From a phage, in the sequence record PZ452578.1: a stretch of DNA of 64,000 bases; one strand, 5' to 3'. The position numbers and the translations under genes were made by a program. Position 1 is the first letter of the stretch; every line of letters begins with the position of its first letter. Positions 3,066 through 18,370 of this stretch are shown here, piece by piece. Under the pieces are notes generated by a model that was given only the letters and a program-made list of their open reading frames with translations, made no database searches and was not told the origin of the DNA.

Positions 3066-3400
3066 TTCATAATCACCAGATAAGCAGATTTAGCAGTTTC
3101 AACACGATAAATTTCGTGACGAAGTTTAGTTATACTTTTAATAACAGAACTAATTATATTCTGCCCATCTTTAAAGCGGTTTTTCTTATCAATAAAAACT
3201 GCGCCAACCATCTTTTTGTGAAGCTCAACTGGATACTTCGTCACAATAATAGCATCATACACAGAAGGATGAATACTATTCACCAGAGTATCATTCATTA
3301 AAGTTATTCTAATGAACTGTGCTGTTTCAGAATCAAGCGCTCTATGATCGCCAGTATCATTTTCAAGACAATTATCAATTATATCAGTTAAATTCATCAT
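3062..3400 (-). CDS. hypothetical protein (112 aa)
   Basis: Track ORF, start overlaps upstream gene stop (coupled arrangement). Confidence 0.45.
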   Translation of the reverse strand: MMNLTDIIDNCLENDTGDHRALDSETAQFIRITLMNDTLVNSIHPSVYDAIIVTKYPVELHKKMVGAVFIDKKNRFKDGQNIISSVIKSITKLRHEIYRVETAKSAYLVIMK

Positions 3401-3636
3401 AGTACGCCATACACCCTTTGTGCTTCAACTAATCCATCAAAATCCAGTTTAAGATGCGATATTTGATCGCCATCACCTGGATTTACAATTACTAATACTG
3501 AACGAGGAGTTTCGGTAATAACACGAACCGATGTTTCAGGAAATCGTTCAGAAACCTTATTTACTAATTCCTGTGCAAATAGTTTAACTTTTTCTTGGAA
3601 TTCTTTAACAGTAATTGGTTTTTCACTTAGTAGCAT
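3397..3636 (-). CDS. hypothetical protein (79 aa)
   Basis: Track ORF in overlapping gene chain. Confidence 0.45.
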   Translation of the reverse strand: MLLSEKPITVKEFQEKVKLFAQELVNKVSERFPETSVRVITETPRSVLVIVNPGDGDQISHLKLDFDGLVEAQRVYGVL

Positions 3637-4157
3637 GTTGATCCAAGCTCCTTACTTTCAACGTTTTTAACTAATTTGACAGAAACTAATTCAGCATCTT
3701 GAGTAATCATTACCGGGCCTTCTTCATACTCTTCAAGATATTCTAGAGCTTTCTTTTTAGCTTCTTCCTTCGTATCAGTTTGAGCATAGATATAGAACAT
3801 ACAACCAGTAATACCTACTACTTTCCACTTAATTTCTTTATCAGTTTTAATTTCAAATTTACTTACAGAATCATCTTTTTGAACTTCTTCGAAAAAAGAA
3901 TATTCTAACATATAAGCAATTGAAAATAGCGGGCTAACTTTATAGGATTCACCCATTACATCAACAGCTTTATACCAACAATCATCAATTTCGCGTTTAA
4001 TGCTAATAACATTTTTCGCAGGATCTATTTTTACTTTAAATGAATTTTCCCCAATAAACTGGGCAATTCGTTTATTAGCCCCGCAAGTTTCATTAAAAAT
4101 ATCTTTATATCCAGCTTTAAAGCGATAAACCTTATCTTCTTCAAACCATTCGCTCAT
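3627..4157 (-). CDS. hypothetical protein (176 aa)
   Basis: Track ORF, no recognised motif. Confidence 0.5.
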   Translation of the reverse strand: MSEWFEEDKVYRFKAGYKDIFNETCGANKRIAQFIGENSFKVKIDPAKNVISIKREIDDCWYKAVDVMGESYKVSPLFSIAYMLEYSFFEEVQKDDSVSKFEIKTDKEIKWKVVGITGCMFYIYAQTDTKEEAKKKALEYLEEYEEGPVMITQDAELVSVKLVKNVESKELGSTCY

Positions 4158-12852: not shown

Positions 12853-13713
12853 TTATACCGCCATTTTTCCTTTCAAGACACCGTGGGACTGATAATCTTT
12901 GAGAACGAAATCTTTAGGCCTGAGTTTAAGAATGTATTCCAATTGTTCTTTAGTAGAAAGATAGCGGAATTTATAAGGCAATCCGCCTATTACCAGTTCA
13001 CAAAGCTCTTTAGGTTCACGACGCAAAATTTCTTTACACTGTTCTACGTGATTCATATAGATATGAGTATTACCGCCAGAAAATATCAAATCTCCAGGAA
13101 TAAGATTACACATCTTAGCTACAATATGAACTAACGCAGCATATGATGCAATATTAAATGGAAGACCGAGGAAAACATCTACCGAACGTTGATACCACTG
13201 CAAATCTAAATAGCCATTACGCACATTAAACTGATAGAACATATGACAAGGCGGTAATGCCATATATTTAAGTTCAGCTGGATTCCACGCAGAAACAATT
13301 TGACGCCTATCATTTGGCAGTTTTTTAATACGATCAACAACTTCTATAATTTGGTCTACACCGCCAAAATCACGCCACTGTTTTCCATAAATTGGACCAA
13401 GTTCACCGCTATGGTATCCTAAATCTTTTGCCTGATTTTCGTAATTTTCATCCCAGACTGTTTTGCCTTGGATTAACGAATCGTGTTGAATTAATCGTAA
13501 ATCATTAACATTTGTGCTTCCTGATAAAAACCATATTAGCTCAGCAATGCATGCATTCCAGGCGAGCTTTTTAGTTGTTACTGCAGGAAAGCCTTTAGTT
13601 AAATCCCAACGCAATTTAGTACCGAACAGAGCAATTGTTCCTGTGCCCGTTCGGTCATCGGTTTCATAGCCATTTTCAAAAATGTCTTTAATTAAATCTT
13701 GGTATTGTTTCAT
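12853..13713 (-). CDS. td: thymidylate synthase (286 aa), uninterrupted
   Basis: Continuous 286-aa ORF with T4 Td N-terminus MKQYQDLIKDIFENGYET; no intron. Confidence 0.9.
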   Translation of the reverse strand: MKQYQDLIKDIFENGYETDDRTGTGTIALFGTKLRWDLTKGFPAVTTKKLAWNACIAELIWFLSGSTNVNDLRLIQHDSLIQGKTVWDENYENQAKDLGYHSGELGPIYGKQWRDFGGVDQIIEVVDRIKKLPNDRRQIVSAWNPAELKYMALPPCHMFYQFNVRNGYLDLQWYQRSVDVFLGLPFNIASYAALVHIVAKMCNLIPGDLIFSGGNTHIYMNHVEQCKEILRREPKELCELVIGGLPYKFRYLSTKEQLEYILKLRPKDFVLKDYQSHGVLKGKMAV

Positions 13714-13758
13714 TTAGTACCTTATATAAATTATAATACATTTTATGAAGCTAAATAA

Positions 13759-14106
13759 TCAATACGGTTTAGCATCAAATTTTCTCTCAATTTCAGGTGT
13801 GAAATATAATTCTTTACCACGTTTGGAAAAGCGACCAATAATATGATAATTATTCTCATCAAACGTAATATTACCAATATCCATAGCTTTCAACCAAATA
13901 TCGATATTTCTATCCAGCTTTATGTCAAAATTCCAATACAGAGAACTATTACCGAAAATACTGCAAGCGGATTCAGTGAAACAACTGCTATAAATCTTGT
14001 CTTTAGGAACTACTAATTGATAGACACCTTTAATAAACTGAGGACCCTGCCACTTTGGCTGTTTCTCGTCTTTTTCTAATAGAATAGGGTAATAATTAAA
14101 ATTCAT
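13759..14106 (-). CDS. hypothetical protein (115 aa) lying between frd and td
   Basis: Track ORF; no recognised motif. Confidence 0.45.
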   Translation of the reverse strand: MNFNYYPILLEKDEKQPKWQGPQFIKGVYQLVVPKDKIYSSCFTESACSIFGNSSLYWNFDIKLDRNIDIWLKAMDIGNITFDENNYHIIGRFSKRGKELYFTPEIERKFDAKPY

Positions 14107-14125
14107 ATTTCCGCCACGCGTTATT

Positions 14126-14710
<585 letters not shown>

Positions 14711-14965
14711 TCAAAACCCCCTTTCAATAAACCATTCAGTGGCTTTATTAGCATCAAAGAATAATTCTTCATATGTCTTTTCTTTGTTTTCAAAAACTGT
14801 CACACAAACACGTTGACATTCTCCACAGTATTCTTCTGACATACTTAAAGCGTCAGAAAACATTTCTTTAAATTCATTTAAATCAGGATTATGCAATGCG
14901 TTAAAAATTGCATAATCGAATTCATCATTCATAAATTCAAATACAAAAATCATATTACCTCCCAC
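14711..14965 (-). CDS. hypothetical acidic protein (about 80-84 aa)
   Basis: Track ORF upstream of frd; start uncertain. Confidence 0.4.
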   Translation of the reverse strand: MGGNMIFVFEFMNDEFDYAIFNALHNPDLNEFKEMFSDALSMSEEYCGECQRVCVTVFENKEKTYEELFFDANKATEWFIERGF

Positions 14966-15309
14966 TGAAAGGGGCCAGAAGCAAATCCGCTATCTTTAAT
15001 CATTTTAACTAAAGTTACCATTCCTCTGTTAACTGCTTGTGAGATTTCATCAAAAACTTCATCACTATCACCATAAAGATCGCTAAAAAGTTCTAACACG
15101 TTCTTCTGAACTTTTAATTTACAGCCAACAAATTCGCCTACAGTAAATTCGTTTCCGCCAACTCCAGCGTAAAACGTAATTACACCAGTTAATGGTCTTT
15201 CACTAGAACATAGGTCGTGTGATAAATTAATATAAGCCGTCCCGGGTGCAGTTTTAAGTTGGCAACGAATACTTACTCGAGCAATTCCAGCTACACGAAT
15301 GTCAGACAT
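14950..15309 (-). CDS. hypothetical protein (119 aa)
   Basis: Track ORF. Confidence 0.45.
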   Translation of the reverse strand: MSDIRVAGIARVSIRCQLKTAPGTAYINLSHDLCSSERPLTGVITFYAGVGGNEFTVGEFVGCKLKVQKNVLELFSDLYGDSDEVFDEISQAVNRGMVTLVKMIKDSGFASGPFQWEVI

Positions 15310-15319
15310 ATTATTTTCC

Positions 15320-15562
15320 TCAAACAGACTTTTTCACAATTTTCCAATCAGCTTTAAACTGCTCGACGTCAGAATGGTAAATCCAAAATCCTGCGCTTTC
15401 TCCATCCTCATAAAGAGGGCATCCATCACATTCATCTTCCCACCCCATATCGCGTAAAAGGTGTTCAGCTTTTTCAACAAGTTCAGAATCTTTACCGATG
15501 ATATTATAATACCATTTACCTCTAACTTCCGAGTCTTTGATGCTCTGACGTTGTAATCTCAT
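15320..15562 (-). CDS. hypothetical protein (80 aa)
   Basis: Track ORF; early promoter 15589-15618 upstream. Confidence 0.45.
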   Translation of the reverse strand: MRLQRQSIKDSEVRGKWYYNIIGKDSELVEKAEHLLRDMGWEDECDGCPLYEDGESAGFWIYHSDVEQFKADWKIVKKSV

Positions 15563-15588
15563 TTTATTCTCCTCAAGTTGATAAGGCT

Positions 15589-15618
15589 ATAGTATCATTA
15601 CCATAGCCTGTTGTAACA
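15589..15618 (-). promoter_or_regulatory. T4-type early promoter (-35 TGTTACA, -10 TACTAT) within palindrome
   Basis: 17-nt spacer; GGCTAT...ATAGCC inverted repeat. Confidence 0.45.
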
Positions 15619-15619
15619 T

Positions 15620-15847
15620 TTATTTTTGGATTAAGCCCATATAAAATTTAGCATCTTCAGGATACATGCCATCACAATACTCATTGGTCATAAAACTAAT
15701 AAGGTCTTCAAGAGGACCTTGGACCTCAATTTGAATACTAAAGAATTGGGTATCTTTAATGTAAGCCATACTCAAAGAAGGATAACGATTGCGGATAACT
15801 TCGTAAGTGTATTCAAAATCAACAATATCAATATTAACCTTAGCCAT
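15620..15847 (-). CDS. hypothetical protein (75 aa), paralogue of 16334-16564
   Basis: Internal ATG 15847 ([13 protein letters not shown]...) preceded by GAGGAAAATAAA; own early promoter 15877-15907. Confidence 0.5.
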
Positions 15848-15876
15848 TTTATTTTCCTCATGTAGTTGATAGGGTA

Positions 15877-15907
15877 ATAGTATCACACTACTACCCTTAC
15901 TGTAAAC
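15877..15907 (-). promoter_or_regulatory. T4-type early promoter (-35 GTTTACA, -10 TACTAT)
   Basis: Upstream of 75-aa paralogue. Confidence 0.5.
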
Positions 15908-16287
15908 TACTTTTTGAAAGTTTTTCGCAAAAGTTCAATGATTTCATCTACATTGTTTTCATCTACAATGCAGTGAATTTTTGTTACGCCAGAAACCTTG
16001 TCTTTGACTTCAACTTCTTCAGAAGTCGGTTCTTTATACTCACGAAAACAATGAAATTCGTCTTCGCAAATTTCTAAAAGTCTATCTTTGAGGTAAAAAT
16101 GCTTTCCATTTGCGCATTCAATGTGTTTTACTGCTTTATATCCATTAGCGACGGAAACTTCTTTAACTTCAAACCATCCGCCATTATCTCGAATCGCTTT
16201 AACTATTGATGAATTAGAACGTGGGCTATAATTAATAAATGTATCAATAAGTCTTGGAACAAGCTCATACTTTTTACCGGTATACAT
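15907..16287 (-). CDS. hypothetical protein (126 aa)
   Basis: Track ORF; GAGGAAAACGTA SD; stem-loop 16309-16325 just upstream. Confidence 0.5.
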
Positions 16288-16333
16288 TACGTTTTCCTCA
16301 TTTTAATAGGGGCTGTAATAGCCCCCTCGATAA

Positions 16334-16564
16334 TTATTGTTCAATCAGTCCCATGTAAAATTCTGCGTCTTCAGAATCCATGCCATCACAATATTCATTA
16401 GCCATAAAGCGGGTAAGGTCTTCAAGAGGACCTTCAATGACAATAGAAAAATTGCAATAATTGGGATCATCATGAATACTTGTGATACTAAGTTCAGGAT
16501 AACGATTACGAATAATTTCTTCGATATATTCAAAATCAACGATGTCAATATCAACTTTAGCCAT
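16334..16564 (-). CDS. hypothetical protein (76 aa), paralogue of 15620-15847
   Basis: Internal ATG 16564 ([13 protein letters not shown]...) preceded by AAGAGGAAAATAAT; early promoter 16608-16637. Confidence 0.5.
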
Positions 16565-16607
16565 ATTATTTTCCTCTTTAATCATCAGCAGTATTGCCGA
16601 TAGTTGT

Positions 16608-16637
16608 ATAGTACCATGGAAGAACAGGGATGTAAAC
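16608..16637 (-). promoter_or_regulatory. T4-type early promoter (-35 GTTTACA, -10 TACTAT) with A/T-rich UP module
   Basis: 17-nt spacer; part of repeated module. Confidence 0.55.
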
Positions 16638-16654
16638 AGTTTTGTGAAAAAATT

Positions 16655-16687
16655 TTTGAAATAAAAAAGGGGACCCTAGAGGTCCCC
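16655..16687 (-). terminator. rho-independent terminator after gene 32
   Basis: GGGGACC...GGUCCCC stem followed by U-run. Confidence 0.7.
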
Positions 16688-16709
16688 AATTAATTAGTAA
16701 TATAATCTA

Positions 16710-17618
16710 TTAAAGGTCATTCAAAAGGTCATCCAGGTCCGTGTCATCAGCACTAGATGAACTGCCAGAGCTTGAGCTCATAAAATCATCTTCAGTTTTT
16801 GTATTGAAGTCATCAACATTGAATGCATCCAAATCATCAGCAACTTTATCAGCTTTCTTAGCAGCAGTTGCAGCGGCACCGCCCATCACAGCAGTTCCCA
16901 TAACTTGACCGAATTTAGTATTCAGTTCTTCAAACGATTTGAATTTATCTTTAGAAGTCATTTCAGAAAGGTCAACCATTTGTTCGAACAGTTCTTTCTG
17001 GAAAGATTCATCATCAATGTTTGGAATCGCAGATTGATTCAGGAATTTAGATTCGTCGTAGTTACTAAAACCAGAAACTTGTTTAACTTTCAGTACAAAG
17101 TTAGCACCTTCCCATGGACAAGTTACATCAACCGGAGTTTCACCCATTTCAACATCAACCGCAATCATCGCGTTGATTTTATCCCAGATTTTCTTACCGA
17201 AACGGTATTTAAATACTTTACCTTCGTTTTCTGGAGCAGCTGGGTCTTTTACTACAAGAATGTTAGCCCAGTAAGAAGTTTTACGTTTAACAAGACCGTA
17301 CTCTTTATTGTCAGTGTTGTACAAATCATTTTTACTGATGTACTGACATACTGGACAAGAATCGTAATCACCGTGGGTAGATGAACAGTTTTCAATATAC
17401 CATTTACCATTTTTCTTGAAACCGTGATTTACAAGAATTGCGAATGGTGCTTGTTCATCATTTTTAGACGGAAGAAAACGAATTACTGCTTGACCGTTAC
17501 CCGCATTATCGAGTTTCAGTTTCCACTCGCCTTTATCTTCAGAAGAAAAACCACCCTTATTTCCAGCCAGTTTAGCCATTTGTGCAGCGAGTTCAGCAGT
17601 AGATTTACGTTTAAACAT
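16710..17618 (-). CDS. 32: single-stranded DNA-binding protein gp32 (302 aa)
   Basis: N-terminus [17 protein letters not shown] as T4 gp32; known autoregulatory leader upstream. Confidence 0.9.
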
Positions 17619-17649
17619 TTTTATTTCCTTTTAATTTAATTAACAGTTG
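17619..17649 (-). promoter_or_regulatory. gene 32 translational operator (unstructured A/U-rich leader)
   Basis: UUAAUUAAAUUAAAAGGAAAUAAAA immediately 5' of the gene 32 ATG, as in T4. Confidence 0.7.
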
Positions 17650-17684
17650 GTGCTATGACGATGTATGACCTCATAGCTGGTCAG
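17650..17684 (-). ncRNA. gene 32 mRNA leader pseudoknot
   Basis: UGACCAGCUAUGAGGUCAUACAUCGUCAUAGC matches my memory of the T4 gene 32 pseudoknot. Confidence 0.65.
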
Positions 17685-17700
17685 TGAGATAATTATAATC

Positions 17701-17708
17701 TATTTATA
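17701..17708 (-). promoter_or_regulatory. late promoter TATAAATA for gene 32
   Basis: Exact TATAAATA on minus strand upstream of leader. Confidence 0.55.
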
Positions 17709-17716
17709 ATAAGCAA

Positions 17717-18370
17717 TTAATACTTACAAGATTTCACAGTTTCAATGAAAACACTTTTAGCTTTCTGTGAATCAATATTTAAAATTTTTCTATAAGCTTT
17801 TAACTTTATAGAATAATTATTCCAAACTAAATTATCAGTCTGTTCATCATGTTTATCAATTATATTTAAAAACGAATCAAGTAAGATAAATGTCTCAAAC
17901 GAAATTATATTCGATTGAAGCAGTTTAAAAATATAACTTGACTGAACCTTTGGATTATATTCAAAGATTTCTTTAAAAGCAGAAACTTCAACTTTCTTAC
18001 TAAAATAATAAATGTTGCGAATATCTTCTTCAAACTTAAATTTAATTTGCTTTAAGCGTCCGATATATTCACGATAAAACACAAGTGCATCAGCGTCAGA
18101 GATGTCACCAATCCAAGCATCTTGGTTAGCAACAAGATTGCTTATAAAGATTAAAGCAAGTTCCTTTAATTTATATTTTTCTGATAACTTCTGGAAAAAA
18201 TACTTATCCCTTCGCTTTTGATAAGCGGCATCAGACACCCGCATGCACCAATTATACTTAATTACATCATACTTTCCATTCATATGTTGTTTTATCATTA
18301 AGTATAATTTATAAACTGATTTACCATCAATGTATCTTTCACCACCAGCAGGCATGCGGAGTTTAATCAT
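17717..18370 (-). CDS. 59: helicase-loading protein gp59 (217 aa)
   Basis: 217 aa as T4 gp59; position between 32 and 33. Confidence 0.8.
   Translation of the reverse strand: MIKLRMPAGGERYIDGKSVYKLYLMIKQHMNGKYDVIKYNWCMRVSDAAYQKRRDKYFFQKLSEKYKLKELALIFISNLVANQDAWIGDISDADALVFYREYIGRLKQIKFKFEEDIRNIYYFSKKVEVSAFKEIFEYNPKVQSSYIFKLLQSNIISFETFILLDSFLNIIDKHDEQTDNLVWNNYSIKLKAYRKILNIDSQKAKSVFIETVKSCKY

Follow-up and report, generated by a model that had tools for sequence, protein, structure and literature searches.

The window analysed here is a stretch of 64,000 nucleotides from sequence record PZ452578.1, which belongs to a T-even phage (Tequatrovirus) and carries the genes of the frd-gene 32 interval on the minus strand. 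Megablast of positions 14100-17700 matched 926 phage records, and the best matches (92-94% coverage, 93-96% identity) were all Tequatroviruses. The interval holds six small ORFs, as the first-pass annotation of this DNA had counted: an 84-aa ORF, a DUF7247 ORF of 119 aa, DUF5417/frd.1 (80 aa), and three further genes that we refer to as copy A, frd.2 and copy B. Copies A and B lie 717 bp apart in direct orientation. Two intergenic elements are called PeSL-A and PeSL-D here; PeSL (promoter-early stem-loop) cassettes of T4-type phages were defined by Arbiol et al. 2010 (PMC2839356) and Comeau et al. 2014 (PMC4122927). The features, all on the minus strand, are as follows.

12853-13713, minus strand: td.
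Between td and frd, minus strand: an ORF of 115 aa.
14126-14707, minus strand: frd.
15320-15562, minus strand: frd.1 (DUF5417, 80 aa; PF17438), T4-type in sequence and bordering the insertion slot on its downstream side.
15563-15619, minus strand: PeSL-D, ahead of frd.1, with a stem-loop at 15584-15609 and the -10 box TACTAT.
About 15573-15866, minus strand: approximate extent of the putatively imported donor-type patch (~0.3 kb), made up of the 3' part of PeSL-A, copy A and PeSL-D.
15620-15847, minus strand: copy A (75 aa plus stop; PF05798, E 5e-36), an frd.3 allele of Gaprivervirus/Dhakavirus type.
15848-15906, minus strand: PeSL-A, comprising a promoter match (15877-15906), a stem-loop (15871-15897), a TATCAA box and the RBS of copy A.
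15907-16287, minus strand: frd.2 (126 aa; PF03197 FRD2, E 4e-33), T4-type and unrelated to copies A and B.
16308-16326, minus strand: stem-loop GGGGGCT-ATTAC-AGCCCC between copy B and frd.2 (-12.6 kcal/mol, z -1.9).
16334-16564, minus strand: copy B (76 aa plus stop; PF05798, E 6e-38), the resident Tequatrovirus frd.3 at the canonical site just downstream of gene 32.
16608-16636, minus strand: early (sigma-70) promoter match of copy B, TTTACA-N17-TACTAT, with TG before the -10 box and AT-rich sequence upstream.
16669-16687, minus strand: intrinsic terminator after gene 32 (GGGGACCTCTAGGGTCCCC, then a T run), from a terminator scan and the sequence; it is the upstream half of a composite terminator/promoter element ahead of copy B.
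16710-17618, minus strand: gene 32, followed by 59, 33, dsbA and rnh.

Both copies are full-length members of PF05798 (Phage_FRD3), scoring 123.4 bits (A) and 129.6 bits (B) against a gathering score of 28.1 bits and spanning profile positions 1-75 of 75, and both are proteins of ~75 aa within the frd-gene 32 interval of T4-like phages. BLASTP aligned them with 48 of 76 residues identical (63%, E 2e-34), which bears out the homology of the two ORFs that the first-pass annotation had described as clear paralogues. The comparison with T4 frd.1-frd.3 that it had proposed places both in the known Frd3 family and identifies the 126-aa ORF between them, correctly described as unrelated, as frd.2, and hence these are not new genes. 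Frd3 is a small family: in a set of 1.84 billion proteins it forms 7 representative clusters at the 50% identity level.

The two copies have different affinities. The protein of copy A shares 85-91% identity with the only frd.3 product of Gaprivervirus and Dhakavirus, the donor genera of the discussion below, and 63-68% with those of Tequatrovirus, including its neighbour B. At the DNA level, copy A shares 88-92% identity with frd.3 of VR7, TH57 and JS98 and 74-75% with Tequatrovirus frd.3, while copy B is 97.8% identical to slur04 frd.3 and 90.5% identical to T4 frd.3. In a neighbour-joining tree, A is nested inside the Gaprivervirus/Dhakavirus clade and B falls among the Tequatrovirus alleles. 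Synonymous divergence between A and B (dS = 1.45) compares with 0.94-1.23 for orthologues between genera and 0.26 for A against TH57, and the longest exact stretch common to A and B is 21 nt. Both copies show purifying selection; dN/dS between A and the donor-type genes is 0.11-0.19. Among the Frd3 proteins of phage isolates, only that of VEc74 is 100% identical to copy A, and the two genes show zero amino-acid changes despite about 10% synonymous divergence. None of the sampled donors is more than 92% identical to copy A in DNA or protein, and copy A carries substitutions that are private with respect to the donor-genus phages sampled (I50/S51, N55, Y62/P63 and K67, in helix 2 and the next loop). 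Its donor lineage would therefore be either one outside the sampled phages or the source of a transfer that is not recent.

Promoters were searched with the published T4/PST early consensus, TTTACW-N17-TAYWAT (PMC2839356, PMC4122927), in the form TTTACW-N17/18-TAYWAT. This PeSL consensus was used because a generic sigma-70 scan of the window was not above chance (20 found vs 17 expected). The T4/PST pattern gave 14 matches in the window where 0.5 were expected; 13 of the 14 were on the minus strand, with one upstream of each copy, and the early promoter that the first-pass annotation had assigned to each gene is thus found as a sequence match in both cases (15877-15906 and 16608-16636). The match ahead of copy B has an exact N17 spacer, its hexamers are kept in T4, slur04 and JLBYU24, and it follows the gene 32 terminator without an internal stem. 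That of copy A reads TTTACA-N18-TACTAT in the window; the spacer is N17 in 10 of 10 related contigs, the extra A being specific to the window. Similarly, the -35 box of PeSL-D is GTTACA through a 1-nt deletion specific to the window, and GTTTACA in all relatives. These 1-nt indels could weaken the predicted promoters of the window. The stem-loops of PeSL-A (-15.6 kcal/mol, z -2.2) and PeSL-D (-14.7 kcal/mol, z -3.3) each overlap the -10 box TACTAT. In T4, the frd.3 mRNA ranks among the most abundant primary transcripts with an NAD cap (bioRxiv 10.1101/2024.04.04.588121), which places a transcription start just upstream of frd.3. The pattern search found no match between copy B and frd.2, where there is only the hairpin; since no promoter match precedes it, frd.2 is probably co-transcribed with copy B. 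From the consensus matches and the T4 transcript data, we infer that each copy is transcribed early from its own predicted promoter by the host sigma-70 RNA polymerase. The T4 database records held no annotated promoter features for comparison, and an Rfam scan of 13500-18000 returned only a chance match.

Gene order in this interval is genus-specific. In T4 it is 32 - frd.3 - frd.2 - (138-bp gap) - frd.1 - frd, and slur04 is the same; in Gaprivervirus VR7 and Dhakavirus JS98 it is 32 - frd.2 - orf232 - frd.3 - frd.1. A tblastn survey of 19 loci confirmed the two orders. The window and VEc74 present their union, 32 - B - frd.2 - A - frd.1, in which copy A occupies exactly the frd.3 position of the donor genera, immediately upstream of frd.1. 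Copy B is the phage's own frd.3 at the canonical Tequatrovirus site (32 - frd.3 - frd.2 - frd.1).

Sequence identity along the interval is correspondingly mosaic. The frd.1 gene is 95% identical in DNA to that of T4 and slur04 and 74-76% identical to that of VR7, JS98 and TH57. PeSL-D (15563-15619) has no counterpart in T4 or slur04 and is 94-98% identical to the element of VR7, JS98 and TH57, the same three phages with which copy A shares its higher identity. PeSL-A (15848-15906) is a hybrid, T4-type in its 5' part and Gaprivervirus/donor-type over its 3' ~25-30 nt, and frd.2 is again of Tequatrovirus type (92-98%; slur04 97.9%), with weak or no similarity to Gaprivervirus/Dhakavirus. Measured against the donor genera, frd.1, frd and gene 32 are 22-33% diverged in DNA and copy A only 8-12%. 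The upstream exchange point lies at about 15866-15876, inside PeSL-A, where the T4-type stem-loop (GGGTAGTAGT...ACTATTACCC) passes into donor-type TATCAACTACATGAGGAAAATAAA-ATG; the downstream one, at about 15559-15573, falls in the common RBS and start of frd.1, GGAGAATAAAATGA. Against slur04, the blastn breakpoints put window positions 15574-15844 in place of 65 bp (slur04 locus positions 1962-2026). This replaced stretch makes up the body of a hydrophobic micro-ORF of 22 codons (MFAPYIMAAVMLVCLYLLIKAC), which is unannotated and occurs in T4, slur04 and two IMG/VR contigs (L008 and L009). In JLBYU24 the same slot holds an 86-aa gene with 96.5% aa identity to JS98 orf232. One slot can therefore hold three alternative cargos (micro-ORF, orf232 or frd.3), two of which come from the gene order of the donor genera. 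The crossover points themselves are inferred from these mosaics.

Because its protein is nearer to the donor genera than to copy B and its immediate flanks are of donor type, copy A is, by its sequence affinities, a horizontally acquired allele (a xenologue). During a mixed infection, the donor patch would have entered a Tequatrovirus by one homologous-recombination event, its two crossovers falling within the conserved PeSL element and within the common RBS of frd.1, so that the micro-ORF cassette was swapped for a cassette of frd.3 plus PeSL. The exchange appears to have followed the PeSL-mediated modular shuffling already published for T4-type phages. We regard it as likely, taking the explanation as a whole, that copy A is a Gaprivervirus/Dhakavirus-type frd.3 imported through PeSL/RBS recombination, and that each copy is expressed early.

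Frd3 was found at 734 places in 730 phage records, so that at most 4 records have two copies, and VEc74 is the only one of the 730 with a collinear single-piece match across the junctions, that is, with the layout of the window. The first-pass annotation had named as its own refutation the presence of both copies in all relatives; instead, B is universal in Tequatrovirus and A is rare among sequenced isolates. The layout is already in GenBank (VEc74), although we came across no publication that discusses it. In an index of assembly contigs, the exact A protein occurs in 38 blocks, and 10 of the 10 places listed have the arrangement 32-Frd3-FRD2-Frd3-DUF5417. When these 10 contigs were compared at the DNA level, the junctions were essentially the same, with scattered single-base differences only. 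Copy A was 98.2-99.6% identical to that of the window in this set, which was retrieved by exact A-protein identity and is therefore biased to conservation and silent on protein-level variation. The accompanying B allele was 80%, 89% or 98% identical and frd.2 87-97%, such that at least 3 different B alleles occur alongside copy A, and the td intron, segG and DUF7247 vary in presence. A scan of IMG/VR gave 12 loci, none with two frd.3 copies. A single origin with subsequent spread fits these data, in which the layout is the same, the junctions are essentially the same and A is near-invariant while B varies across contigs; the event probably occurred once, and the cassette would then have spread among Tequatroviruses by ordinary recombination.

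The two-copy state may itself be a substrate for recombination, in which an unequal crossover of B with A would yield a chimeric frd.3 and the loss of frd.2. One protein (P0010), from one contig of one sample, has a B-type N-terminal two-thirds and an A-type C-terminal third, and its contig reads 32 - chimera - frd.1, without frd.2. In the DNA, a T4-type B allele gives way around codons 51-54, at a clean transition, to the A allele carried by Tequatroviruses, and the sequence then continues into PeSL-D and a T4-type frd.1. Unequal crossover between copies spaced 717 bp apart would give just such a product. The k-mer length of Logan assemblies is 31; as the longest exact stretch common to A and B, given above, is shorter than this, the chimera is unlikely to be a k-mer mis-join.

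Frd3 is an 8.9-kDa, strongly acidic protein (copy A, pI 4.27 and net charge about -6; copy B, pI 4.05 and net charge about -15), modelled by AlphaFold2 with a pLDDT of 92.8. The predicted fold is beta-alpha-beta-beta-alpha-alpha, a truncated ferredoxin-like arrangement. Copies A and B differ at 15 of 20 positions in the beta2-loop-beta3 hairpin, with the strand-1 and helix regions conserved, and the same hairpin concentrates the non-synonymous changes among B alleles (pN/pS 0.68-1.8, on very small counts). A PDB sequence search with Frd3 returned only a chance match to BolA (E 1.7), and Foldseek against the PDB with the Frd3 model found nothing at E <= 0.001. BFVD structure searching recovered only other uncharacterised Frd3 proteins, PHROGs only an entry of unknown function, and PADLOC nothing. 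Our literature search found no study of T4 Frd.3 function, the term 'Frd3' being swamped by the Arabidopsis FRD3 gene. Databases often label Frd3 an 'ssDNA-binding protein'. In the T4 CRISPRi-ART screen, frd.3 and frd.1 were classed 'Not Fit' and frd.2 'Fit' (PMC11879866), and frd.3 is thus dispensable in that laboratory knock-down screen (PMC11879866); the frd.2 product has a predicted LSm-like fold (PMC12152347).

As for what a second allele might do, we suggest only tentatively, as a rather unlikely reading, that Frd3 is a binding protein for some macromolecule of host or phage, with its specificity determined by the hypervariable beta2-beta3 hairpin, and that two divergent alleles widen the range of targets or hosts. 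Bolder, and more doubtful, is the proposal that Frd3 is an allele-specific host-interaction or counter-defence factor targeted through the hairpin, that phages which stack two divergent alleles and recombine them into chimeras gain host range, and that the two-copy genome is a living intermediate of the inter-genus move of frd.3 across frd.2. The second copy may conversely be redundant or neutral cargo, since PeSL-flanked cassettes insert harmlessly and recombine easily. The absence of a laboratory fitness effect on knock-down of T4 frd.3, a slot that tolerates three unrelated cargos, the rarity of A among isolates and the natural B::A fusion that reduces the pair to one gene would all suit such cargo. 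We nevertheless hold it to be somewhat unlikely, given the purifying selection on A relative to donor-type genes, the lack of any amino-acid change between the window and VEc74 at the synonymous divergence noted above, and the retention of A with at least 3 B alleles in varied backgrounds, which points to many recombination events, although this last observation comes from the conservation-biased contig set.

The import of copy A has also to be weighed against other origins of the pair. An ancestral pair in the Tevenvirinae of enterobacteria, from which most Tequatroviruses lost the distal copy and Gaprivervirus and Dhakavirus the gene 32-proximal one, would explain why frd.3 lies on opposite sides of frd.2 in the different genera, and it would suit the promoter element and tiny ORF kept in the otherwise empty slot of T4. 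An ancestral copy should, however, match its flanks in divergence, and copy A is 8-12% diverged from the donor genera where frd.1, frd and gene 32 are 22-33% diverged. In addition, A is near-invariant in the 10 contigs (98-99.6% in DNA) in which B and frd.2 vary widely, suggesting recent spread in a set that was picked by the exact A protein. We therefore reject differential loss of an ancestral pair as improbable, chiefly on the mismatch between A and its flanks.

The first-pass annotation had implied a local duplication, which is the part of its account that does not hold. If the resident frd.3, alone or together with frd.2, had been duplicated in tandem and had then diverged at the site, two homologous genes in direct orientation at this spacing in a variable region would result, and JS98 has a putative tandem duplication nearby (frd.2a/frd.2b). 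Duplicates made in situ should be closest to one another, or at least closer than orthologues from other genera, yet A has much higher identity to frd.3 of other genera (85-91% aa) than to B (63%) or any other Tequatrovirus frd.3 (63-68%), and the tree separates the two. The element downstream of A is moreover 94-98% donor-type without a T4 counterpart, and the A-B dS is like an inter-genus distance. Contradicted by both phylogeny and flanks, duplication in place is rejected as very improbable. A chimeric assembly of a sample mixing Tequatrovirus with Gaprivervirus/Dhakavirus could in principle create a short patch (~0.3 kb) between repeated promoter elements, at which an assembler may jump from one template to another, but it is rejected as scarcely credible since the layout recurs, with junctions that are essentially the same, in 11 further independent assemblies (isolate VEc74, two NCBI assemblies and several metagenomes) and the A lineage has substitutions absent from the sampled donor-genus phages.

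Read as the import of a donor-type frd.3, the locus offers a base-resolved example of single-gene exchange between T4-like genera through common promoter/stem-loop elements, and it illustrates how a phage can come to carry neighbouring alleles of one gene after such an import. The two-copy state would explain how gene order changes between genera, by import at a new position and later loss of the old copy, and it may yield further variants such as the B::A chimera without frd.2. The analysis also corrects some database noise in the form of the 'ssDNA-binding protein' label, and it presents Frd3 as a strongly polymorphic, laboratory-dispensable early protein that is worth testing for a host-specific role.

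In relation to known systems, the case is an ordinary instance of known gene shuffling; both genes are of a known family, and there is no new kind of system. Copy B is the orthologue of T4 frd.3 (NP_049853; PF05798, 'uncharacterized 8.8 kDa protein in frd-Gp32 intergenic region'), which it resembles in adjoining gene 32, in its DNA identity, in its promoter hexamers and in its length class; it differs in the sequence of the beta2-beta3 hairpin, where T4 has VQDSKFWSIQIV. Copy A belongs to the same family as T4 frd.3, but it shares only about 68% identity with T4-type Frd3 and is found on the opposite side of frd.2. With the frd.3 of Gaprivervirus (VR7, TH57) and Dhakavirus (JS98, IME08), copy A shares its position upstream of frd.1 and the promoter/stem-loop element downstream. 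In those genera frd.3 is the sole copy and is preceded by frd.2 and orf232, whereas copy A belongs to a Tequatrovirus background, in which it comes immediately after an frd.2 of T4 type and accompanies the resident copy.

The elements flanking copy A are like published PeSLs in being intergenic and in combining a promoter of sigma-70 type, a stem-loop that lies between its boxes or overlaps them (over the -10 in both PeSL-A and PeSL-D), and the RBS and start of the next gene. As with PeSLs, small ORFs stand singly between them in a hyperplastic region, where close relatives differ by insertion, deletion or replacement of whole cassettes ending inside the elements; here one slot takes three cargos, with junctions in PeSL-A and at the frd.1 RBS. 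The promoter match is exact only for copy B, with the longer spacer in PeSL-A and the window-only -35 deletion in the element ahead of frd.1. Unlike the cassettes of Arbiol et al. and Comeau et al., the cargo is a second allele of a gene already present rather than an ORFan, and it thereby creates a direct repeat; the downstream crossover, moreover, is at the RBS and start of frd.1 and not in a second full PeSL. Promoter and terminator activity and excision as mini-circles are features of the published PeSLs; here, recombination of PeSL-A with PeSL-D would give a circle of about 287 bp. A further parallel is the tandem frd.2a/frd.2b of JS98, likewise a pair of small early homologues within the frd-gene 32 interval, which are adjacent to each other, unlike copies A and B.

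The resident Tequatrovirus frd.3 locus (copy B; 16334-16564 in the window, minus strand) is itself mosaic and highly polymorphic, as seen at approximately 3290-3532 of the comparison loci L021, L022, L026 and L028 and at 3291-3518 of L023 and L024. One B allele differs both in its hairpin and in its C-terminal half (ALNDPNCNVSVV...NRLKQFMV...TGFIEQ), and a recombinant B allele joins a T4-type N-terminal half to the C-terminal half of this same allele.

A chimeric Frd3 was found at 3501-3749 of Logan contig SRR29999948_7620 (L031). It follows the T4-type B allele to approximately codon 52 and, beyond that, the Tequatrovirus-borne allele of copy A, the Gaprivervirus/Dhakavirus-type frd.3 (15620-15847 in the window, minus strand). 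PeSL-D, the early promoter/stem-loop element ahead of frd.1, and frd.1 itself come directly after the chimera, and frd.2 is absent. The chimera and the loss of frd.2 are compatible with unequal crossover in a two-copy genome. The arrangement is notable because frd.2 was the sole 'Fit' gene of unknown function in a T4 CRISPRi-ART screen (PMC11879866).

In the window, td (12853-13713) is intron-less, with a continuous reading frame of 286 aa, and segG is not present between genes 32 and 59 (17619-17716). In several contigs with the same copy-A cassette, the I-TevI intron is present, or the T4 segG position is filled by a 210-aa ORF, or both; the frd-32 interval therefore lies between two homing-endonuclease sites known from T4 biology. 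These flanking sites may promote the mosaicism of the interval.

Two single-base indels are peculiar to the window, one in PeSL-D and one in PeSL-A, the corresponding element ahead of copy A.

Window-specific promoter indels
15900-15901 region: extra A in the PeSL-A spacer, making the spacer of the copy-A promoter N18 (N17 in 10/10 related contigs)
15613-15616: T missing from the PeSL-D -35 ahead of frd.1 (GTTTACA to GTTACA)

Both indels may either be genuine and weaken the promoters or be sequencing errors in homopolymers.

Both Frd3 copies match phrog_1764, a profile of 391 positions, with the alignment confined to positions 317-391. This is consistent with a family in which some members far exceed Frd3 in length, such as fusions with gene 32 arising by read-through. 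Such longer members may be the source of the label 'single-stranded DNA-binding protein' that Frd3 bears in several GenBank records; one record labels it 'putative peptidase inhibitor'.

Other small genes
13759-14106, minus strand: 115-aa ORF between td and frd, phrog_1928
14950-15309: DUF7247 gene, 119 aa
T4 NC_000866 (L007), approximately 4016-4084: unannotated hydrophobic micro-ORF of 22 codons in the frd.1-frd.2 gap, MFAPYIMAAVMLVCLYLLIKAC

The 115-aa ORF, for which no Pfam match was obtained, is found in many Tequatroviruses and not in T4, where td abuts frd; its JLBYU24 annotation, 'putative dihydrofolate reductase', is a mislabel. The DUF7247 gene is missing in T4 and VEc74. Its identity is 97.7% to JLBYU24, 87.8% to Gaprivervirus TH57 and only 80% to the slur04 version. 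It may represent a further inter-genus exchange within the frd-32 interval. The micro-ORF, which also occurs in L002 and in the IMG/VR contigs L008 and L009, occupies in T4 the slot of copy A and has its own predicted early promoter/stem-loop element and ribosome-binding site. In JS98, two homologues of frd.2, named frd.2a and frd.2b, lie side by side (L005, 3612-4370). Like copies A and B of the window, they are small early genes of the frd-32 interval that occur as a homologous pair.
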